A stretch of DNA of 8,083 nucleotides from a virus (lineage: Duplodnaviria > Heunggongvirae > Uroviricota > Caudoviricetes). The translations under genes were made by a program, and so were the position numbers. Each line of letters opens with the position of its first letter. The stretch's first letter is position 1. The notes beneath the pieces are model-generated. The model was not told the DNA's origin, searched no databases, and saw nothing but the letters and a program-made list of their open reading frames with translations. The stretch is from IMG/VR virus record IMGVR_UViG_2695420847_000016, positions 1 through 8,083 of that record; one strand, 5' to 3'. Positions 1 through 8,083 of this stretch are shown in pieces.

Positions 1-500
1 CGCGTCGTTCTCTGGGATTACCGGCGGAAAAAATCCGCTCCGTATACCGTGAAAGCGACATCATACCGGGAGAACAGACCGCCACCAGCATACTGAAGCA
101 GCGCACAAAAAATATTGCGCTACCGCCTCACACCCACCAGCAACAGAACCCACCACAGGAAAAGACGGTGGTCAGCATTGCCGTTGATCCGGAGTCTCCG
201 GAATCCTTCATGAAACGACCTAAACGTCGCCTCTGGGTAAATGAGAAATACACACGCTGGGTAAAGACACAGCCGTGTGCGTGTTGTGGTAAGCCAGCGG
301 ACGATCCTCATCATCTGATTGGTCATGGTCAGGGTGGAATGGGAACAAAATCCCACGATATTTTCACGCTACCGCTGTGTCGGGAGCATCACAACGAGCT
401 TCATGCGGATCCGCTGGCGTTCGAAGAAAAGCATGGTTCCCAGGTTGATTTAATTTTTCGTTTTCTTGATCACGCTTTTGCAACCGGCGTGCTCGGGTAA
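1..500 (+). CDS. Phage zinc-finger protein of the YdfU/YbcO (DUF968/DUF1364-like) type; 5' end lies outside the window
   Basis: The frame is open from base 3 to TAA at 498-500; the ORF track shows only the internal GTG at 168. The C-terminal part has a Cys/His pattern (CACCGKP...HH...GTK...CREHH). The gene sits directly upstream of rusA, as in lambdoid nin regions. Family assignment is from motif and context, not a search. Confidence 0.6.
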   Translation, partial: RRSLGLPAEKIRSVYRESDIIPGEQTATSILKQRTKNIALPPHTHQQQNPPQEKTVVSIAVDPESPESFMKRPKRRLWVNEKYTRWVKTQPCACCGKPADDPHHLIGHGQGGMGTKSHDIFTLPLCREHHNELHADPLAFEEKHGSQVDLIFRFLDHAFATGVLG

Positions 501-512
501 AAGAGGTTACTG

Positions 513-884
513 ATGCGTATAGAGTTTGTTTTGCCTTACCCGCCGACGGTGAACACCTACTGGCGACGTCGTGGCAGCACATATTTTGTATCAAAAGCCG
601 GTGAGCGTTATCGCCGGGCTGTGGCGCTTATTGTTCGCCAGCAGCGGCTGAAATTAAGCCTGTCCGGACGGCTGGCAATAAAAATTATTGCAGAACCACC
701 GGATAAGCGCCGCCGTGACCTGGACAACATTCTGAAAGCACCGCTGGATGCGCTGACGCATGCGGAAGTGCTCATTGATGACGAGCAGTTTGATGAAATC
801 AATATTGTGCGCGGTCAGCCTGTGCCAGGTGGACGGCTGGGCGTGAAGATTTACGAAATCAGAGGTGGTAACGATGGCGCGTGA
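513..884 (+). CDS. rusA: RusA Holliday-junction resolvase (crossover junction endodeoxyribonuclease)
   Basis: 123-aa ORF with AAGAGG 5 nt upstream of ATG 513. The protein has the RusA-type acidic core ([20 protein letters not shown]) and length matching E. coli RusA. Confidence 0.88.
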
Positions 885-1245
885 TATCCAGATGGTTCTT
901 GAGCGATGGGGGGCATGGGCAGCAAATAATCATGAAGATGTAACATGGCCCTCGATAGCTGCTGGTTTTAAAGGATTAATCCCGACTAAAGTGAAATCAC
1001 GTCCTCAGTGTTCTGATGATGACGCCATGATAATTTGTGGTTGTATGGCACGATTAAACAAGAATAATCAGTATTTGCACGATTTGTTGGTGGATTATTA
1101 CGTAGGTGGAATGACATTTATGGCTCTTGCACGTAAGCATAGATGTTCTGATGGGCTTATTGGTAAAAGGCTTTATAAAGCGGAAGGTATTATTGAAGGA
1201 ATGCTTATGGCTCTGAATGTCCGGTTAGATATGGATATGCGGTAG
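874..1245 (+). CDS. Late-gene antiterminator Q, short (about 125 aa) Q family as in DLP12-type prophages
   Basis: ATG 874 is preceded by AGAGGTGG (861-868) and overlaps the rusA stop (ATGGCGCGTGA). The sequence [25 protein letters not shown]...CGCMARL matches my memory of QuuD-like Q proteins. The track start GTG 865 is probably too far upstream. Confidence 0.8.
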
Positions 1246-1336
1246 GGATATATAGTGATGAGGGTTATGTTTTCTGTGTTTATAATTAACATGTTTATTT
1301 TTTGATGGTCATGTATTGTGGAAGGTAGATAAAATG

Positions 1337-1365
1337 TTGCCTGGTGAATTGAAAATATTGATAAT
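1337..1365 (+). promoter_or_regulatory. Candidate sigma70 promoter (TTGCCT-N17-GATAAT) in the AT-rich spacer between Q and the CPBP gene
   Basis: Hexamer match with 17-bp spacing, about 30 nt upstream of the CPBP ribosome-binding site. It could be the PR'-equivalent late promoter or a cargo promoter. Sequence match only. Confidence 0.25.
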
Positions 1366-1396
1366 CAATCTTCATCATTAAATAAAAGGAGTGCTT

Positions 1397-2215
1397 ATGT
1401 GGATTGTGTTAGTACTGTCACTGTCAACTCTCAGTTGGCATAAGGTAGTGGCTTTTTCATTGTTGACGGTGTCTGTTGTCCTGGCTGTGCTTAATGATAT
1501 TATTGATTGGTCGGTGTTATTTTTTGTTGCTACAATCGTTTTTTTTATTATTTTGAAGTTCAACTGGAAATATAACGCCTGGGCTAAATCTATATATGAA
1601 GTTGGCATAGTTTTATCAGCCATAGCATTATCTTTCCATCTATGGCCAGGGTTTCACAATCCTGTAGTGCTAAATTCTGTTACTGTTGGCCCTCAAAGTA
1701 CTCCCTATACAATGTATTTTAATTTTGATAAAGCGCTGGTGCCATTTTTGTTAGTCCTGTGTACATCTTCTTTGTTTAAAAAAGAAGTAAAATCAGAAGT
1801 GTCTTTGTGGAAGTGGGGGGCTCTGTCGCTCTCTGTTCCTCTTATCCTGTTTTTGGCTGTTTTTTTTGGTGGATTAAAGCCAGAGATTCATTTTCCTGAG
1901 TGGTTGCCAGAGTTTATATTGGCTAATTTGTTTTTTGTGTCTCTGGCAGAGGAATCATTATTTAGAGGGTATATTCAATCACGGCTATCAGAAGTAACGT
2001 CTCCATTGGTTGCATTAATTGTGGCGGCTTTGTTGTTTGGTTTTTATCACTATTCAGGTGGTGCTTTACTTGTATTATTTGCCACGTTATCTGGTGTTGT
2101 GTATGGATTGTCATGGATGTGGAGTGGGCGTTTGTGGGTTGCCACCCTTTTCCATTTTGGTTTGAATCTGTGTCACTTGTTATTCTTTACCTATCCATTT
2201 TTAAAACATAATTGA
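1397..2215 (+). CDS. CPBP-family (CAAX protease / Abi domain) intramembrane metalloprotease
   Basis: AAGGAG (1386-1391) lies 5 nt before ATG 1397; the track start GTG 1391 is 2 codons upstream. The protein is a multi-pass hydrophobic protein with all three CPBP motifs: EExxxR (LAEESLFRGY), FxxxH (FGFYHY) and HxxxN (HFGLNL). The gene is markedly AT-rich compared with the rusA/Q backbone. Confidence 0.8.
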   Translation: MWIVLVLSLSTLSWHKVVAFSLLTVSVVLAVLNDIIDWSVLFFVATIVFFIILKFNWKYNAWAKSIYEVGIVLSAIALSFHLWPGFHNPVVLNSVTVGPQSTPYTMYFNFDKALVPFLLVLCTSSLFKKEVKSEVSLWKWGALSLSVPLILFLAVFFGGLKPEIHFPEWLPEFILANLFFVSLAEESLFRGYIQSRLSEVTSPLVALIVAALLFGFYHYSGGALLVLFATLSGVVYGLSWMWSGRLWVATLFHFGLNLCHLLFFTYPFLKHN

Positions 2216-2295
2216 TTTTTTCTATGGTTTTAAATTTATAAGACTGAAAAATAGCAGGACGTGACATTTGCATGAAAAATATGCACGGCAAAGCA

Positions 2296-2309
2296 TTTAC
2301 GTACGTAAA
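2296..2309. promoter_or_regulatory. Perfect 14-bp palindrome TTTACGTACGTAAA, candidate operator
   Basis: Exact reverse-complement symmetry, in the intergenic region between the CPBP gene and the small winged-helix ORF. Function is inferred only. Confidence 0.2.
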
Positions 2310-2356
2310 AAATCAGGTATGCTGTTAAGAGTGGTTATTTCGCCGCATAGCTTGAC

Positions 2357-2378
2357 CCCGCCTCTGAGCGGGTTTTTT
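2357..2378 (+). terminator. Intrinsic terminator downstream of the CPBP gene
   Basis: CCCGC-CTCTGA-GCGGG hairpin followed by TTTTTT. Confidence 0.5.
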
Positions 2379-2501
2379 GTGCCCGCAAAGTAGCGCAGTG
2401 CGTTAAATGTGCTGGTAGTTATTAATACAGGTCTTTCAGCTTGCTGGCTTTTTCGGCAAGAGTTATTGGTGTGTCACGTTAACCGGAAAGGGTAAAAAGA
2501 C

Positions 2502-2699
2502 ATGCTGAAACAGCAGGATATGACAGAAACCGCCAGAGTTGTGTTTGATGAATTAAGCGTCACCGAACCGGCGACAGTCGGGGAGATTGCGCAGAATACT
2601 TACCTTTCACGCGAACGCTGCCAGTTAATACTGACCCAGCTTGTTATGGCGGGTCTGGCAGACTATCAGTGCGGTTGTTACAGACGCCTTCAGTCCTGA
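2502..2699 (+). CDS. Small winged-helix DNA-binding protein, PapI/FaeA-like (65 aa)
   Basis: ATG 2502 has a GGAAAGGG purine tract upstream. The segment TVGEIAQNTYLSRERCQLILTQLVMAGLA resembles the PapI/FaeA recognition helix region. Only the last ~49 nt are repeated in the second module (4573-4621), so the intact gene is unique to module 1. Confidence 0.5.
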   Translation: MLKQQDMTETARVVFDELSVTEPATVGEIAQNTYLSRERCQLILTQLVMAGLADYQCGCYRRLQS

Positions 2700-2770
2700 A
2701 GGCTTTTTTATTTGTGGTAAATGGGCGGCTGGTGGGTGTTAGCGGCACCTGTCAGTCCTTTGCTTATGTG

Positions 2771-2801
2771 TTGATGATAATTTACCTTTTGGGGCTATAA
2801 T
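2771..2801 (+). promoter_or_regulatory. Candidate promoter for the AraC-family gene (TTGATG ... TATAAT, 19-bp spacer)
   Basis: Perfect -10 hexamer TATAAT at 2796-2801 and a TTGATG -35-like hexamer at 2771-2776. Spacing is suboptimal. The same motif is conserved in copy 2 at 4690-4720. Confidence 0.25.
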
Positions 2802-2836
2802 TGAACTAACCAATTGCTAATGAAAGTAAAATTATA

Positions 2837-3550
2837 ATGGTTGTTGTCTGTTCAGTTATCATGGTTTGCTCCCCAATTAATATTTTTCTTGAAAAGGATA
2901 CGTTGTCACTTAAGCCCGGCTCAGTCGTTCTGGCCACCAAATGCATCAGGGCGCTTTTCCTTATGCATTATGGCAAAGTTAAAATTTTCGATATAAACCA
3001 TTCCATAGTAAGTCAATATCTGGAAATTCAGCATAAGCTGACAAGAACTCATCTGACTGACGTTCCGCTTTATCTGTCACTGGAACCCAACAACCCTGCG
3101 TTGGCTGAGGCTTTAATTACCAGCCAGAGATTTTCCGGAGATACCACGGATATGTTTCTTATGATGGCATGCCTGTCGCTGTTTGAATCAGATGAACGGA
3201 TATTATTATTTTTAAGTGGATGTTTATCCAGTATAAGTACCAAAGTCAGGGCGATAATTCAGACAGATATATCAGCAAGCTGGACGCTTGGTGCGATTGC
3301 GTTACGCCTGCATATGAGTGAGAGTTTGTTAAAGATAAAACTGAAAAATGAAGGGCACATGTTCAGTCGCTTGTTGCTGGAAGAGCGGATGCGTGTTGCT
3401 GTGAATATGTTATGTTCCCGGCATGGATATGGACAGGCTGTAGCAGAAAAATGCGGTTATTCAAGCTGGTCCTACTTTATTTCTGTATTTCACCGCTATT
3501 ATGGCTTCCCGCCAGACAGATATGTATCCAGGCAAGGGCTTGATTATTGA
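2837..3550 (+). CDS. AraC/XylS-family transcriptional regulator (prophage-encoded, paralog 1)
   Basis: 237-aa ORF with a C-terminal double HTH typical of AraC family (WTLGAIALRLHMSESLL ... YGQAVAEKCGYSSWSYFISVFHRYYGFPPDRY). AT-rich. The start could instead be ATG 2861. Confidence 0.8.
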   Translation: MVVVCSVIMVCSPINIFLEKDTLSLKPGSVVLATKCIRALFLMHYGKVKIFDINHSIVSQYLEIQHKLTRTHLTDVPLYLSLEPNNPALAEALITSQRFSGDTTDMFLMMACLSLFESDERILLFLSGCLSSISTKVRAIIQTDISASWTLGAIALRLHMSESLLKIKLKNEGHMFSRLLLEERMRVAVNMLCSRHGYGQAVAEKCGYSSWSYFISVFHRYYGFPPDRYVSRQGLDY

Positions 3551-3578
3551 TTTTCATCTGATTATTATTTTTTGACCC

Positions 3579-3654
3579 GGCCCTTTAGCTCAGTGGTGAG
3601 AGCGAGCGACTCATAATCGCCAGGTCGCTGGTTCAAATCCAGCAAGGGCCACCA
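3579..3654 (+). tRNA. ileZ: tRNA-Ile2 (anticodon CAU, lysidine type), 76 nt with encoded CCA
   Basis: Cloverleaf built by hand: acceptor GGCCCTT/AAGGGCC, D-stem GCTC/GAGC, anticodon loop CTCATAA, T-loop TTCAAAT. Close to E. coli ileX rather than elongator tRNA-Met. The symbol is by analogy with the Stx-phage tRNA cluster. Confidence 0.8.
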
Positions 3655-3661
3655 TCACATA

Positions 3662-3738
3662 CCGCCATTAGCTCATCAGGAAAGAGCGCCAGCTTTCGAA
3701 GCTGGTTGCGCGGAGTTCGGGTCCCCGAAGGCGGTCCA
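3662..3738 (+). tRNA. argN: tRNA-Arg (anticodon UCG), copy with stem and T-loop irregularities
   Basis: Anticodon loop TTTCGAA between the CCAGC/GCTGG stem. It carries an A-A mismatch in the acceptor stem, an A-C mismatch in the T-stem, and T-loop TTCGGGT (G at the usually conserved A58). It may be impaired. The symbol is by analogy only. Confidence 0.6.
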
Positions 3739-3751
3739 TTATCTGTATCCT

Positions 3752-3828
3752 GCGTTGTTAGCTCAGCCGGACAGAGCAATTGCCTTCTAAGCAATCGGTC
3801 ACTGGTTCGAATCCAGTACAACGCGCCA
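3752..3828 (+). tRNA. argO: tRNA-Arg (anticodon UCU), canonical copy
   Basis: Acceptor GCGTTGT/ACAACGC, anticodon loop CTTCTAA, T-arm ACTGG-TTCGAAT-CCAGT, encoded CCA. Resembles E. coli argU-type tRNA. Confidence 0.85.
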
Positions 3829-3842
3829 CACTTATTTTCCCT

Positions 3843-3868
3843 GGCTCGCTTTTGCGGGCCTTTTTTTT
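3843..3868 (+). terminator. Intrinsic terminator after tRNA cluster 1
   Basis: GGCTCGC-TTTT-GCGGGCC hairpin (one G-U pair) followed by a run of 8 T. Confidence 0.6.
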
Positions 3869-3933
3869 AAATATCTCACAATTCAGGCGGTTGACTGTTG
3901 TCTGGTTTGCGGGGAGTTTGTTAAAAGAAACTG

Positions 3934-4041
3934 GCATGGTGAATCCCCCTGTGCGGAGGGGCGATCAGCAACCAGGTATATGGGATAATCGCGGATTCAG
4001 GTGCTGATACTGAATTCACCGGGAGGCACCCGGCACCATGC
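3934..4041. repeat. 108-bp dyad-symmetric element, copy 1 (100% identical to 6548-6655)
   Basis: Base-by-base comparison shows the two copies are identical. Ends are inverted repeats GCATGGTG...CACCATGC, with internal inverted repeats GGTGAAT/ATTCACC and CCCCT/AGGGG. Flanking sequences are only loosely similar. Confidence 0.8.
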
Positions 4042-4101
4042 TTTGCCACAAAAGTGTTGTTTCTGTTTTTCTCAAACTATCATCGTTATCCCTTTATTTC
4101 C

Positions 4102-4128
4102 GGCTGCGCATGGCGTGGCCTTTTTTTT
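4102..4128 (+). terminator. Intrinsic terminator upstream of the nanS-p fragment
   Basis: GGCTGCGC-ATG-GCGTGGCC hairpin with two wobble pairs, followed by 8 T. A related hairpin recurs at 6800-6825. Confidence 0.45.
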
Positions 4129-4214
4129 ACGACCAGCCACTGGCAGATGGCCATCCTGTAATTTGATTCCGGTTCCGGCTTTTTAACTCTGTTCCTGTAC
4201 ACGGGAGAAATTCG

Positions 4215-4739
4215 ATGTCGATTAAACATTATGATGTTGTCAGGGCGGCGTCGCCGTCAGACCTTGCGGAAAAGCTGACACATAAACTGAAAGAGGGCTG
4301 GCAGCCGTTTGGTAGTCCGGTGGCCATAACCCCTTATACCCTGATGCAGGCGATTGCAGCAGAAGGTGATGTGGTGGTCAGTGGTGCAACTGAGCCGGAG
4401 TGGTACTACGTCATCGTACTGGCCGGGCAGTCCAATGCCATGGCTTACGGTGAAGGGCTTCCGCTGCCGGATTCATACGATGCTCCGGATCCGCGTATTA
4501 AACAGCTGGCGCGCCGCAGTACAGTGACGCCGGGTGGGGCTGCCTGCAGATATAACGATATTATTCCGGCACGGGTCTGGCAGACTATCAGTGCGGTTGT
4601 TACAGACGCCTTCAGTCCTGAAGGCTTTTTATTTGTGGTGAATGGGCGGCTGGTGGGGGGGCGACACCTGTCAGTCCTTTGCTTATGTGTTGATGATAAT
4701 TTACCTTTTGGGGCTATAATTGAGCTAACCAATTGCTAA
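4215..4739 (+). pseudogene. nanS: 5' fragment (about 119 codons) of a nanS-p-type sialate O-acetylesterase gene fused out of frame to the edge of module copy 2
   Basis: The N-terminal sequence is near-identical to the ORFs at 6922 and 7548 up to ...RYNDIIPA (through nt 4570). From 4573 the DNA is the repeat also found at 2651 onward, so the ORF tail (RVWQTISAVV...) is read-through of sequence that is noncoding or in another frame in copy 1. Confidence 0.6.
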
Positions 4740-4755
4740 TGAAAGTAAAATTATA

Positions 4756-5469
4756 ATGGCTGTTGTCTGTTCAGTTATCATGGTTTGCTCCCCAATTAAT
4801 ATTTTTCTTGAAAAGGATACGTTGTCACTTAAGCCAGGCTCAGTTGTTCTGGCCACCAAATGCATCAGGGAGCTTTTCCTTATGCATTATGGCAAAGTTA
4901 AAATTGTCGATATAAGCGAATCCGTCGTAAGTCAATATCTGGAAAGTCAGCATAAGCTGACGAGGACTCGTCTGACTGACATTCCGCTTTACCTGTTGCT
5001 GGAACCCAACAATCCTGCGTTGGCTGCGGCTTTAATTACCAGCCAGGGATTTTCCGGAGAGGCCACGGATATGTTTCTTATGATGGCCTGCCTGTCTCTG
5101 TTTGAAACAGATGAACGGATGTCATTGTTTTTAAGTGGATGTTTATCCAGCATAAGTGCCAAAGTCAGGGCGATAATTCAGACAGATATATCAGCAAGCT
5201 GGACGCTTGGTGCGATTGCTCTACAGTTGCATATGAGTGAGAGTTTGTTAAAGACAAAACTGAAAAATGAAGGGGGCATGTTCAGTCGCTTGTTGCTGGA
5301 AGAGCGGATGCGTGTTGCTGTAAATATGTTATGTTCCCGGCATGGATATGGACAGGCTATAGCAGAAAAATGCGGTTATTCAAGCAGGTCCTACTTTATT
5401 TCTGTATTTCACCGCTATTATGGCTTCCCGCCAGACAGATATGTATCCAGGCAAGGGCTTGATTATTGA
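4756..5469 (+). CDS. AraC/XylS-family transcriptional regulator (paralog 2)
   Basis: 237 aa, same length as paralog 1, with 23 amino-acid differences by manual alignment. 17 of these fall in the N-terminal 135 residues. Confidence 0.8.
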   Translation: MAVVCSVIMVCSPINIFLEKDTLSLKPGSVVLATKCIRELFLMHYGKVKIVDISESVVSQYLESQHKLTRTRLTDIPLYLLLEPNNPALAAALITSQGFSGEATDMFLMMACLSLFETDERMSLFLSGCLSSISAKVRAIIQTDISASWTLGAIALQLHMSESLLKTKLKNEGGMFSRLLLEERMRVAVNMLCSRHGYGQAIAEKCGYSSRSYFISVFHRYYGFPPDRYVSRQGLDY

Positions 5470-5497
5470 TTTTCATCTGATTATTATTTTTTGGCTC

Positions 5498-5573
5498 GGC
5501 CCTTTAGCTCAGTGGTGAGAGCGAGCGACTCATAATCGCCAGGTCGCTGGTTCAAATCCAGCAAGGGCCACCA
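5498..5573 (+). tRNA. ileZ: tRNA-Ile2 (anticodon CAU), second copy
   Basis: Identical in sequence to 3579-3654. Confidence 0.8.
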
Positions 5574-5582
5574 TATTACATA

Positions 5583-5659
5583 CCGCTATTAGCTCATCGG
5601 GACAGAGCGCCAGCCTTCGAAGCTGGCTGCGCGGGGTTCAAGTCCCCGATGGCGGTCCA
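5583..5659 (+). tRNA. argN: tRNA-Arg (anticodon UCG), canonical copy
   Basis: Acceptor CCGCTAT/ATGGCGG (one G-U pair), anticodon loop CTTCGAA, T-arm CGGGG-TTCAAGT-CCCCG fully paired, encoded CCA. Confidence 0.75.
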
Positions 5660-5672
5660 TTATCAGCATCAT

Positions 5673-5749
5673 GCGTTGTTAGCTCAGTCGGACAGAGCAA
5701 TTGCCTTCTAAGCAATCGGTCAGTGGTTAGACTCCACTACAACGCGCCA
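5673..5749 (+). tRNA. argO: tRNA-Arg (anticodon UCU), copy with atypical T-loop
   Basis: Same acceptor and anticodon arm as 3752-3828, but the T-arm is AGTGG-TTAGACT-CCACT. The stem change is compensatory; the loop has A in place of the conserved C56. Confidence 0.65.
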
Positions 5750-5762
5750 CACTTATTTTCCA

Positions 5763-5786
5763 GGCTCGCTTCGGCGGGCCTTTTTT
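5763..5786 (+). terminator. Intrinsic terminator after tRNA cluster 2
   Basis: GGCTCGC-TTCG-GCGGGCC hairpin followed by TTTTTT. Confidence 0.6.
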
Positions 5787-5918
5787 GTATCTGCGCCACG
5801 CCCGGCGCATATCAACCACAGAGCCTTTCGGGGGTGAGCTTACGGAGTGGTCAGTGTGACTTTCTCTGTGGGCAGATCGCTCCCGGGCGTTGGCTCACCC
5901 ACCCAAAGGAACGTCACG

Positions 5919-6350
5919 ATGTTTGGAATCTTCAAAAAGAAAACCCGCAGAGCGGCAGCGGAAATTAAAAAGTTTGAGAAACGCGATCTGGCACAGGCGG
6001 TGATTAACGCTGCATACCTGGTGGCCTATGCAGATGGTGAATGCGAGGCATCCGAGAAAGCGAAGATCGAACAGGTCTTACGTAATCAGCCTGCGTTGTC
6101 TGCGTTTACCTCGGAAATTAATGCGATTAGCGCAACCATTATCGGTCAGCTGGATACCAATTTTAAAATTGGTCGTCGTGCCGCGTTACGCGAGATTGAG
6201 GATGTGAAACACGATACGCGTGAAGCGGAAGATGTGCTGGATGTGGCGGTGGCCATTGCGGAGGCAGACGGCGAAATTGAGCCGGAAGAGCGCAAGGTGC
6301 TGGAAGAGATTGCCGGTGTTCTGGGTCTTCGTCTGGAGAATCACCTGTGA
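5919..6350 (+). CDS. TerB-family (tellurite-resistance TerB-like) protein, 143 aa
   Basis: ATG 5919 has AAAGGA 8 nt upstream; the track start GTG 5847 is probably not used. Two acidic DG-containing repeats (AYADGECEASEKAKIEQVL and AEADGEIEPEERKVLEEIAGVLGL) match the layout of plasmid TerB as I remember it. Confidence 0.7.
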   Translation: MFGIFKKKTRRAAAEIKKFEKRDLAQAVINAAYLVAYADGECEASEKAKIEQVLRNQPALSAFTSEINAISATIIGQLDTNFKIGRRAALREIEDVKHDTREAEDVLDVAVAIAEADGEIEPEERKVLEEIAGVLGLRLENHL

Positions 6351-6514
6351 CGGTAAAACTGCGCCTGGCTGTGGCTGCACTCCTGCTGTTTCTGGTGGTG
6401 ATGGTGGATCTCACCAGCAGAATCATGTCGGTGCTGGCGGATGGGGTGCTGGTCTGCGGCATTGTGGTATTGCTGTGGCCGGTGATAAAAAGAAACAGCC
6501 TGCATAATGCTTGA
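6347..6514 (+). CDS. Hypothetical small hydrophobic protein (about 55 aa, two predicted membrane-spanning segments), translationally coupled to the TerB-like gene
   Basis: Not in the ORF track. GTG 6347 overlaps the TerB stop (GTGA) with GGAGA 7 nt upstream; an alternative start is ATG 6401. The frame runs to TGA 6512-6514 and encodes ...LRLAVAALLLFLVVMVDLTSRIMSVLADGVLVCGIVVLLWPVIKRNSLHNA. Confidence 0.35.
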   Translation: MTVKLRLAVAALLLFLVVMVDLTSRIMSVLADGVLVCGIVVLLWPVIKRNSLHNA

Positions 6515-6547
6515 TTTTTTTGTTTGCTGTTTATTAAAAACACTTCT

Positions 6548-6655
6548 GCATGGTGAATCCCCCTGTGCGGAGGGGCGATCAGCAACCAGGTATATGGGAT
6601 AATCGCGGATTCAGGTGCTGATACTGAATTCACCGGGAGGCACCCGGCACCATGC
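6548..6655. repeat. 108-bp dyad-symmetric element, copy 2 (100% identical to 3934-4041)
   Basis: See copy 1. It lies 267 bp upstream of the nanS-p start at 6922. Confidence 0.8.
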
Positions 6656-6680
6656 AAGAAAAAGAATGTGCATGCAAACA

Positions 6681-6706
6681 TGCCCCTCTCCGGAGGGGCA
6701 TTTTTT
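6681..6706 (+). terminator. Intrinsic terminator
   Basis: TGCCCCTC-TCCG-GAGGGGCA hairpin (8 bp) followed by TTTTTT. Confidence 0.6.
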
Positions 6707-6712
6707 ATGGGT

Positions 6713-6737
6713 AAAAAATGCCCGAATGGGTTCGGGC
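6713..6737 (-). terminator. Possible minus-strand intrinsic terminator facing the one at 6681-6706
   Basis: GCCCGAA-TGGG-TTCGGGC hairpin with AAAAAAT on its 5' side on the + strand, which is a T-run on the minus strand. No minus-strand gene is evident to its right. Confidence 0.3.
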
Positions 6738-6799
6738 AATAGCATGAGATACTGATATTGTTGTGTTGTTATCGTGTGGATTTTAACCAGGGTTTATCA

Positions 6800-6825
6800 G
6801 GCTGCGCAACTGCGTGGCCTTTTTT
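6800..6825 (+). terminator. Intrinsic terminator in the nanS-p leader
   Basis: GGCTGCGC-AACT-GCGTGGCC hairpin followed by TTTTTT; a diverged homolog of the hairpin at 4102-4128. Confidence 0.5.
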
Positions 6826-6866
6826 CATTTCTTGGGCTGTAGTCCCCGTGTGTCATTCAGGCTTCC

Positions 6867-7492
6867 GGACTACAGCCCACTCCATATCTGATTTAATACA
6901 CTATCCCGGCCGGGAGGAATAATGACATTTAAACATTATGATGTTGTCAGGGCGGCGTCGCCGTCAGACCTTGCGGAAAAGCTGACACACAAACTGAAAG
7001 AGGGCTGGCAGCCGTTTGGTAGTCCGGTGGCCATAACCCCTTATACCCTGATGCAGGCGATTACAGCAGAAGGTGATGTGGTGGTCAGTGGTGCAACTGA
7101 GCCGGATTGGTACTACGTCATCGTACTGGCCGGGCAGTCCAATGCCATGGCTTACGGTGAAGGGCTTCCGCTGCCGGATTCATACGATGCTCCGGATCCG
7201 CGTATTAAACAGCTGGCGCGCCGCAGTACAGTGACGCCGGGTGGGGCTGCCTGCAGATATAACGATATTATTCCGGCCGACCACTGCCTGCATGATGTGC
7301 AGGATATGAGTACGCTGAATCATCCGAAGGCAGACCTGAGCAAAGGGCAGTACGGCTGTGTCGGCCAGGGCTTACATATTGCCAAAAAACTGCTTCCGTA
7401 TATCCCGAATAACGCGGGGATCCTGCTGGTACCATGCTGTCGTGGTGGTTCGGCATTCACCCAGGGCGCGGAGGGGACATTCAGTGCGGACA
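6867..7492. repeat. Tandem duplication unit 1 (626 bp: 55 bp of leader plus the first ~190 codons of nanS-p)
   Basis: The sequence from 6867 recurs from 7493 with a constant offset of 626 bp to the window end. At least four single-base differences were seen, for example at 7205/7831, 7250/7876, 7268/7894 and 7396/8022. Confidence 0.85.
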
Positions 7493-7548
7493 GGACTACA
7501 GCCCACTCCATATCTGATTTAATACACTATCCCGGCCGGGAGGAATAA
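6922..7548 (+). pseudogene. nanS: nanS-p-type sialate O-acetylesterase, N-terminal 190 codons ended by the tandem-duplication junction (208-codon ORF)
   Basis: GGGAGGAATA lies before ATG 6922. The protein has a DUF1737-like N-terminus and the start of an esterase domain with a GQSN motif (VLAGQSNAMAYGEG). After ...TFSAD the frame runs into the duplicated leader (RTTAHSISDLIHYPGREE, stop). Confidence 0.55.
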
Positions 7549-8083
7549 TGACATTTAAACATTATGATGTTGTCAGGGCGGCGTCGCCGTCAGACCTTGC
7601 GGAAAAGCTGACACACAAACTGAAAGAGGGCTGGCAGCCGTTTGGTAGTCCGGTGGCCATAACCCCTTATACCCTGATGCAGGCGATTACAGCAGAAGGT
7701 GATGTGGTGGTCAGTGGTGCAACTGAGCCGGATTGGTACTACGTCATCGTACTGGCCGGGCAGTCCAATGCCATGGCTTACGGTGAAGGGCTTCCGCTGC
7801 CGGATTCATACGATGCTCCGGATCCGCGCATTAAACAGCTGGCGCGCCGCAGTACAGTTACGCCGGGTGGGGCTGCATGCAGATATAACGATATTATTCC
7901 GGCCGACCACTGCCTGCATGATGTGCAGGATATGAGTACGCTGAATCATCCGAAGGCAGACCTGAGCAAAGGGCAGTACGGCTGTGTCGGCCAGGGCTTA
8001 CATATTGCCAAAAAACTGCTCCCGTATATCCCGAATAACGCGGGGATCCTGCTGGTACCATGCTGTCGTGGTGGTTCGGCATT
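7493..8083. repeat. Tandem duplication unit 2 (partial; runs off the window)
   Basis: See unit 1. Confidence 0.85.
7548..8083 (+). CDS. nanS: nanS-p-type sialate O-acetylesterase (prophage paralog), 3' end outside the window
   Basis: ATG 7548 overlaps the TAA of the truncated copy (TAATGA). The reading frame is open to the window end, and the sequence is ~99% identical to 6922-7457. Confidence 0.7.
   Translation, partial: MTFKHYDVVRAASPSDLAEKLTHKLKEGWQPFGSPVAITPYTLMQAITAEGDVVVSGATEPDWYYVIVLAGQSNAMAYGEGLPLPDSYDAPDPRIKQLARRSTVTPGGAACRYNDIIPADHCLHDVQDMSTLNHPKADLSKGQYGCVGQGLHIAKKLLPYIPNNAGILLVPCCRGGSA

Follow-up and report, generated by a model that had tools for sequence, protein, structure and literature searches.

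What does a phage gain from a TerB-domain protein? The question is raised by two overlapping genes, tciA and tciB, in the 8,083-nucleotide (nt) stretch of DNA that was analysed here in full and is called the window below (positions 1 to 8,083 of IMG/VR record IMGVR_UViG_2695420847_000016, Caudoviricetes). Judged by its sequence, the pair is a known and annotated accessory module of enterobacterial phages and not a discovery: RefSeq names its products 'tellurite resistance TerB family protein' and 'DUF3927 family protein', and in PHROGs, where both are classed as morons, TciA falls under phrog_632 (labelled 'tellurite resistance') and TciB under phrog_1470 (labelled 'TciB-like inhibition of cell division or resistance to colicin'). 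The names tciA, tciB and tciC were given in phage P1 'by homology'. Comparative papers describe the tci genes as morons 'found in the tRNAs region' that are frequently lost and whose predicted resistances remain to be tested, and our literature search found no experimental work on the function of tciA or tciB. A 711-bp stretch (5850-6560) is 100% identical to complete Escherichia coli chromosomes. Of 5,426 complete E. coli genomes, 1,145 have a match to it, at a median of four places per positive genome; in 802 the match covers at least 80% of the stretch, and these carry the full pair with RefSeq annotation. The pair is thus found in about one fifth of complete E. coli genomes, and few unexplained cargo genes of Shiga-toxin-type and other enterobacterial phages are as common. 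Its 'tellurite resistance' label, derived from homology alone, is misleading. With modest confidence we read the pair as a lytic-phase, translationally coupled module of a TerB protein and a membrane hairpin, the translation of which would be gated by a structured leader RNA. If true, such a membrane-tethered TerB module would correct the label and provide a simple two-protein entry into TerB-domain action.

The tciA-tciB pair and its conservation

The window contains two copies of a module composed of an AraC-like regulator gene and three transfer RNA (tRNA) genes. After the first copy, only about 60 nt separate the tRNA terminator from an STnc100-family small RNA (sRNA), without any cassette. 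After the second, the same two landmarks are separated by about 730 bp (5789-6518) that carry the pair. The cassette is a discrete unit of terminator, leader of about 130 nt, tciA and tciB, placed in the Q-dependent late region between the phage tRNA genes and the STnc100 sRNA, at which homology with the first copy resumes (aligned with 3905-4077; Table 1). Hidden Markov models (HMMs) of TciA and TciB each matched the window once, in agreement with a first-pass annotation of this DNA that had described the pair as unique to the region after the second module.

The same annotation had assigned the 143-amino-acid (aa) product to the TerB family, and profile searches bore this out. TciA scored 60.2 bits against Pfam TerB (PF05099; cut-off 24.4; E 2.9e-16; residues 26-138), its profile aligned with the solved Klebsiella TerB (PDB 2JXU; E 1.5e-17; residues 13-137 to 19-144), and it matched PHROG 632 over its full length. 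The AlphaFold2 model (predicted local distance difference test, pLDDT, 89.1) was all-helical with seven main helices and a short C-terminal turn, and its top PDB neighbours in Foldseek were the TerB-like COG3793 structures 2H5N (probability 1.00) and 2OU3 (0.93), with template modelling (TM) scores of 0.54-0.62 and weak E-values of 0.02-0.5. No hydrophobic or transmembrane segment was found in its hydropathy profile, which points to a soluble protein. The repeated A-D-G-E … E acidic motifs of TerB are thought to chelate metal, and TciA has two ADGE motifs at residues 38-41 and 116-119 (AYADGECEASE, 35-45; AEADGEIEPEE, 114-124). Across 18 homologues, there is no variation at E46, D117, G118 or E124 and at least 90% conservation at G40 and E119; D39 reaches the same level in a 14-sequence alignment. 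TciA is 42% identical to its P1 counterpart and shows weak likeness to DUF533/YebE (23.9 bits; cut-off 29.6) and DjlA (E 1e-6; cut-off 162 bits). Its ATG start is kept across homologues as MFG...; a GTG start at 5847 (167 aa) was rejected, as homologues begin MFG or MLG and variants differ upstream by 1- and 4-nt insertions or deletions (indels).

TciB matched Pfam DUF3927 (PF13064) with 58.9 bits (cut-off 25; E 4.9e-16; residues 3-51) and PHROG 1470 'TciB-like' with an E-value of 1.9e-28. It is 48% identical to P1 TciB and was also aligned with the proteins of phages 434, Pollock and D6. Two hydrophobic segments, which had been claimed for this small open reading frame (ORF), were recovered by hydropathy at about residues 5-20 and 26-47. 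The short loop VDFTSRIMSVLADG is conserved with near-invariant D21 and D32, and in 13 diverse sequences D21, D32, P45 and K48 are invariant or near-invariant. TciB is thus predicted to be a two-helix hairpin of the inner membrane; it has basic residues at both ends (K4 and R6; K48 and R49), so that the positive-inside rule would place both termini in the cytoplasm, on the same side as TciA. The ORF had been reported as missing from the ORF track, which holds for the track used in the first pass, but RefSeq does annotate it. The DUF3927 family is small, with 133 representatives at 50% identity among 1.84 billion proteins; its named members all belong to Enterobacterales or their phages and are nearly all stand-alone proteins of 45-65 aa, the longer 'members' being frameshift chimeras.

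The GTG start of tciB within the sequence GTGA at the TerB stop and the separate GGAGA ribosome-binding site, both noted in the first pass, were read directly in the sequence. Among 200 full-length TerB loci, a sample biased towards lambdoid cassettes, a DUF3927 gene starts no more than 10 nt from the TerB stop in 193, usually with GTG as part of GTGA. A diverse set of 16 phage TerB loci was also inspected. In nine of them (the window, JLK-2012, P1, D6, two phages of Klebsiella, the N4-like Pollock and UTK0002, and Pantoea phage LIET2), a clear DUF3927 gene begins at an offset of -4 to +1 nt from the TerB stop. The Erwinia jumbo phage Asesino adds a tenth locus, in which a divergent ORF annotated as TciB-like starts 3 nt after the stop and matches the DUF3927 profile weakly (E 1e-4). 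The offsets seen were -4 (window and JLK-2012), -1 (P1 and D6), 0 (Pollock) and +1 nt. GTG is the tciB start in 171 of 215 junction variants, and CTGGAG(A/C) before it is kept in most. Since a contig scan of genomes with the DUF3927 alignment returned only 3 loci and an IMG/VR scan with the TerB alignment only 91-100% identical copies, the diverse sequences were taken from annotated phages and from second copies of the leader in the collected loci. On these comparisons the tight abutment of TerB and DUF3927 genes is conserved across unrelated phage lineages, and the coupled arrangement proposed in the first pass is consistent with the overlap geometry kept among them. The dN/dS ratio (nonsynonymous to synonymous substitution rates) of tciB was about 0.2-0.5 against diverged alleles, indicating purifying selection. 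Because of this ratio, the retained offsets and the start beside the TerB stop in 193 loci, the alignments identify the small ORF as a genuine gene and not a chance ORF.

Several further features of the pair were recorded. The pair adjoins phage tRNA genes in five otherwise unrelated types, namely the window prophage, P1, D6, JLK-2012 and Asesino (coordinates: window 5498-5749; L003 1616-1769 and 3201-3276; L005 4599-4832; L089 94-564; L090 347-433). TciB C-terminal tails differ among alleles (…KRNSLHNA, …KKDMPGS, …KKQNE), and a recombination breakpoint was located within the pair at about 6474-6495 of the window by comparison with loci L029-L031, L041, L044 and L062. In phage 434 (L002, 2606-3838), an intact DUF3927/TciB gene lies at the Q-to-lysis position, flanked by two predicted membrane proteins of 247 and 62 aa without Pfam matches.

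The tciA leader RNA

Homology among independent cassettes begins at the terminator (about 5762-5790) and not at the ATG. Klebsiella cassettes share about 80% nt identity with long invariant runs over 5790-5987, where their TerB proteins are about 42% identical, so that by alignment the leader is more conserved than the coding sequence. The 1- and 4-nt indels between its variants indicate that the stretch is non-coding. We propose a set of helices for this leader, including a long-range stem between an anti-Shine-Dalgarno (anti-SD) element and the Shine-Dalgarno (SD) sequence of tciA (Table 1). Thirteen of 32 leader pairs were changed on both sides, compared with 3.9 ± 1.6 in shuffled alignments, and 0 of 500 shuffles reached the observed value. 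In a 30-sequence alignment, 87.5% of cells were paired under the proposed model, and register-shifted controls fell to 18-53%. The P0 hairpin, the anti-SD:SD helix and P2 were predicted independently, with 15 covarying pairs, by RNAalifold, in which pseudoknots are not possible.

Twelve diverged leader representatives had the same helix set in different sequences. P1 occurred as CCACAGAG/CUCUGUGG, CCGUAGAG/CUCUACGG, CCACCGAG/CUCGGUGG and GAAAGU/ACUUUC; P2 as GGGUGAGCC/GGCUCACCC, GAUGAGCCCUG/CAGGGUUCAUC and an 18-bp version; and the anti-SD:SD helix as CCUUU/AAAGG, UCUUU/AAAGG and, in the kilA-N subfamily, CCUG/CAGG. A further helix, P3 (5844-5848 with 5879-5883), was dropped for its inconsistency across variants. 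P1 crosses the P2 and anti-SD:SD stem, which implies a pseudoknot or an alternative state. The minimum-free-energy fold of the window leader (-57.7 kcal/mol; z -2.7) differs from the alignment consensus, and a single nested structure was rejected, since the two folds conflict and both have covariation.

The leader covariance model found a single copy in the window. The leader profile also matched upstream of TerB in Asesino, and diverged relatives were found upstream of antirepressor genes (P22_AR_N, ANT/KilAC), of small unannotated ORFs and of a KilA-N gene in JLK-2012, with two related copies that were not individually checked. In the contexts where the upstream sequence was inspected, the leader sits just after a terminator hairpin. 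In Rfam 15, no family reached its gathering score for the window leader, and relevant matches were absent even up to an E-value of 1 for this leader and up to 0.1 for four diverged copies. A literature search with invariant leader strings found nothing relevant. The family is apparently undescribed, the one element of the cassette for which this seems to hold.

From this conservation and covariation, the leader probably gates translation of the pair. In the proposed mechanism, the conserved long-range stem would pair the invariant CCUUU with the SD sequence AAAGG, and a competing or pseudoknotted P1 would modulate this pairing. As a tentative extension, to which we give somewhat less than even credence, the leader may be a portable phage riboregulator, in which the covarying stem hides the SD sequence and P1 acts as the switch, keeping tciAB, antirepressor and KilA-N genes silent until a lytic-phase cue, with TciA-TciB acting as a lytic-phase, membrane-tethered TerB sensor and effector and not as a 'tellurite resistance' gene. 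The cue could be temperature, RNase III processing, a ligand or a protein. If confirmed, the leader would be a new class of translational control placed before genes that need tight silencing, such as antirepressors and KilA-N, and a ready-made portable OFF-switch.

Expression setting and competing explanations

No sigma-70-like promoter was found by sequence scan between the terminator and the tciA ATG, and a promoter of the cassette's own was rejected, as candidate hexamers were also not conserved in the alignment. The 100% matching locus, ordered Q, AraC-like regulator, tRNA-Ile/Arg/Arg, TerB, DUF3927, SASA esterase (nanS-p type), holin and lysozyme, is the late region of a lambdoid prophage. 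Klebsiella prophages have the pair as their first gene set downstream of Q and a terminator, with holins following; in those of E. coli it has Q, methylase or tRNA genes on one side and the lysis genes on the other, and in P1 it lies between the C1-operated Pban promoter and ban. Both family matches and the Q-to-lysis position in E. coli and Klebsiella prophages agree with the first-pass description of the pair as two-gene accessory cargo of a phage late region. The pair is also present in Schitoviridae (N4-like) and Erwinia jumbo phages, which are taken to be virulent and are not known to lysogenise. This occurrence, and the terminators that precede the pair in late or repressor-controlled operons, make a role in lytic infection appear more plausible than lysogen defence.

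Under the lytic-phase reading, transcription during lytic growth would run past the upstream terminator into the cassette, by Q antitermination here and within the C1-controlled ban operon in P1. Translational coupling would yield TciA and TciB in fixed proportion, and TciB, with both termini in the cytoplasm, would serve as membrane anchor or partner of cytoplasmic TciA, an idea supported by the lack of a transmembrane segment in TciA, by the basic termini of the TciB hairpin and by the weak likeness of TciA to YebE and DjlA. The two proteins would thus form a minimal version of a membrane-associated TerB, as found with TerC in ter operons and in DjlA and YebE, and would serve the infected cell and not the lysogen, most plausibly by conditioning the envelope or the divalent-cation and redox state until lysis. 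Vibrio phage vB_VpaP-MS02 (L239, 36-3426) has a mini ter operon of the order TerD-TerD-hypothetical-TerC-TerB, the TerB of which is 38% identical to TciA, suggesting that phage TerBs of this subfamily can work with a Ter membrane protein. By analogy, we suggest that this partner or anchor role falls to the 55-aa hairpin in enterobacterial phages.

Several observations weigh against this reading or parts of it. TerB homologues of Pseudomonas, Vibrio and Sinorhizobium phages have no DUF3927-like or hydrophobic ORF downstream, and phage 434 has tciB without tciA, behind an unrelated membrane protein, which argues that the two proteins are not strictly interdependent. TerB genes that are 97-99% identical in protein carry DUF3927 alleles only 72-80% identical in DNA; this indicates recombination within the pair, and such swapping of alleles behind near-identical TerB genes argues against tight co-evolution. 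A physical TciA-TciB interaction finds no support in gene fusions, since the candidate Rosetta-stone fusions in the database (P0124, P0186, P0279, P0326 and P0341) pass through a third frame or join unrelated N-termini and were rejected, by their sequences, as frameshift or assembly artefacts. The genes tciA, tciB and tciC of P1 were non-essential in a CRISPR interference (CRISPRi) screen, and the operon has been lost in about half of one P1 subgroup. Expression in the lysogen may occur by leak-through of the terminator or from an undetected promoter. For the leader, the minimum-free-energy fold and the consensus disagree, yet both collect covariation; two such covarying folds are what a switch would look like.

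The gene names in P1 and the PHROG labels, which derive from ter-operon phenotypes, would suit a module of lysogenic conversion or defence that makes the host tolerant of tellurite or oxidative stress, makes it resistant to pore-forming colicins or excludes other phages. Authors have speculated on phage inhibition or host fitness, and the cassette is very common in prophages of the enterohaemorrhagic E. coli (EHEC) type, with several places per positive genome. We nevertheless consider such a module unlikely. Searches of the PADLOC-DB 2.0 defence models gave no match for TciB and, for TciA, only a marginal partial match to PDC-S48 (E 0.0035 over 35 residues), and the phage-defence flavour suggested in the first pass is not supported by this result or by the presence of the pair in N4-like and jumbo phages. 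No TerC-, TerD-, TerZ- or TerA-like ORF was seen in the window by the ORF list and Pfam scans of the larger ORFs, which comprised phage, AraC, CPBP and SASA genes only. The location of the pair behind terminators, in late or repressor-controlled operons and without a detectable promoter, also speaks against expression for the benefit of a lysogen. The authors of a study of D6-like phages stated that the 'operon is incomplete', and untested.

A role in lysis timing, where TciB would act as a holin- or antiholin-like protein that tunes the neighbouring holin and TciA as its cytoplasmic regulator, draws on the prophages of Klebsiella and many of E. coli, in which the pair heads the late genes and the holin lies 0.5-0.6 kb downstream, and on the size and two-helix layout of TciB, which are those of class II holins. 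This appears improbable, as P1, D6, Pollock, UTK0002, LIET2 and Asesino have no annotated lysis gene in the inspected stretches of 0.7-2.5 kb on each side while tciB still adjoins TerB in all six, DUF3927 is the sole Pfam match of TciB with no holin family among its matches, and in the window the sRNAs and the 1.9-kb nanS-p esterase gene part the pair from the lysis cassette. It is similarly doubtful that the cassette is a functionless hitch-hiker, spreading by recombination in a moron hot-spot and decaying. Dispensability and frequent loss in P1 would fit such decay, as would prophages in which TerB is truncated or pseudogenised with tciB still adjoining and the existence of PHROG 3920, a family of 48-aa TerB remnants. 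On the other hand, tciB has a dN/dS below 1, invariant residues are kept in both proteins across lineages 28-50% identical, the overlap geometry occurs in at least six phage types, and the non-coding leader is constrained more strongly than the coding sequence.

Neighbouring features and known systems

The coordinates of the cassette, its leader copies and the neighbouring features are collected in Table 1.

Table 1. Features of the tciA-tciB cassette and its surroundings in the window, and copies of the leader in collected phage loci (L numbers)
Feature	Position	Strand	Remarks
tciA	5919..6350	+	ATG 5919, TGA 6348-6350; 143 codons; read from sequence
tciB	6347..6514	+	GTG 6347-6349; 55 codons; overlaps tciA stop as GTGA
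Shine-Dalgarno of tciA	5905-5911	+	AAAGGAA; 8 nt upstream of ATG
Shine-Dalgarno of tciB	6335-6339	+	GGAGA; 7 nt before GTG; within last tciA codons (…LENHL, stop)
Intrinsic terminator hairpin and T-run	5762..5788	+	AGGCTCGCTTCGGCGGGCCT then TTTTTT; after tRNA-Arg(UCU); left edge of mobile cassette; terminator scan
tciA leader, non-coding	5790..5918	+	about 130 nt; conservation and compensatory changes
Leader P0 hairpin	5793-5797 with 5804-5808	+	proposed
Leader P1	5816-5823 with 5864-5871	+	CCACAGAG with CUCUGUGG; proposed
Leader anti-SD:SD	5824-5828 with 5905-5909	+	CCUUU with AAAGG; proposed
Leader P2	5832-5840 with 5892-5900	+	GGGUGAGCU with GGCUCACCC; proposed
Leader P1a hairpin	5849-5861	+	proposed
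Leader copy	L089 574-712		profile search
Leader copy	L232 8790-8943		profile search
Leader copy	L125 13779-13932		profile search
Leader copy	L120 7086-7235		profile search
Leader copy	L180 148-277	-	profile search
Leader copy	L005 9207-9323		profile search
Leader copy	L177 1374-1491	-	profile search
Leader copy	L197 13874-13993		profile search
STnc100-family sRNA, second copy	6519..6712	+	Rfam RF02076, 142.7 bits; terminator 6680-6701; right-hand neighbour, outside pair
STnc100-family sRNA, first copy	3905-4077	+	
AgvB (anti-GcvB) sRNA	6713-6774	-	only after module 2; convergent with STnc100
AraC-family regulator, first copy	2837-3550		237 aa; immediately upstream of tRNA trio
AraC-family regulator, second copy	4756-5469		237 aa; immediately upstream of tRNA trio
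CPBP/Rce1-like intramembrane glutamic protease	1391-2215		274 aa; Abi-type; after Q antiterminator; late-region cargo
nanS-p terminator	6799-6820		
nanS-p leader region	6799-6921		before nanS-p (DUF1737 + SASA) gene at 6922
nanS-p leader inverted repeat	6834-6845 / 6867-6878		GGGCTGTAGTCC / GGACTACAGCCC; perfect, 12 bp; before GGGAGGA ribosome-binding site

Two junctions in the window, at about 4572 and 7548, were contiguous in 0 of 5,426 complete E. coli genomes. At the former, a nanS-p 5' fragment is joined to the region upstream of the second AraC-like gene; at the latter there is a perfect 626-bp tandem repeat of the nanS-p start. Repeats associated with the two junctions lie at 4160-4459, 6867-7166 and 7493-7792. 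The window probably reflects similar prophages that were mis-joined or collapsed in assembly, or else a rare rearrangement. The cassette is unaffected by these junctions, its sequence and immediate context being confirmed in complete genomes.

The two AraC-family genes share a 300-nt repeat over their 5' ends that is 96% identical, and the second copy, the one scanned, best matched YdeO/GadX (NCBIfam E 4e-31, far below the equivalog cut-off). We take these regulators to resemble the prophage acid-resistance and locus of enterocyte effacement (LEE) regulators of EHEC (Psr/PatE type). The tRNA terminator (5751-5792) weakly resembles the 3' end of the STnc100 model. The nanS-p gene has a tciA-like layout of a terminator followed by a leader, which is of a different sequence family from the tciA leader.

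Among known systems, the closest are the tci genes of P1 and D6, in which a TerB-family protein of 141-144 aa is likewise followed by a 54-aa DUF3927 protein starting at or over the stop, with adjacent tRNA genes and lytic or repressor control. P1 differs in having a third small single-helix gene, tciC, with no convincing equivalent in the window, and in lacking the conserved leader (no nhmmer or blastn match in the P1 locus); the setting is the ban operon in P1 and a lambdoid Q-late region in the window. A 31-aa ORF at 6507-6602 was considered as a tciC candidate and rejected, since comparison by eye with the TciC-type sequences of P1 and D6 found only an M-x-D-F start in common and the ORF runs into the STnc100 sRNA.

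The TerB of terZABCDE (2JXU) has the same domain over its full length and the same pair of acidic ADG-x-E motifs, but the window is without TerC, TerD, TerZ, TerA and TerE, and the partner is a 55-aa mini-protein in place of the multi-pass TerC. The N-terminal region of DjlA and YebE (DUF533) likewise place a TerB-like helical domain at the inner membrane, with weak scores far below the cut-offs; in the window, however, the membrane element would be a separate polypeptide, and there is no J domain.

Leaders that sequester an SD sequence include the fourU and ROSE RNA thermometers, the SAM-II and preQ1-II pseudoknot riboswitches and the RNase III stem of the lambda N leader. The tciA leader shares with them a U-rich anti-SD:ribosome-binding-site pairing at the base of a long-range stem, a second pseudoknotted or competing helix and a location in the 5' leader of a phage gene. 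It differs from them in matching no Rfam family and in that one leader family serves unrelated genes, namely tciA, ant and kilA-N.

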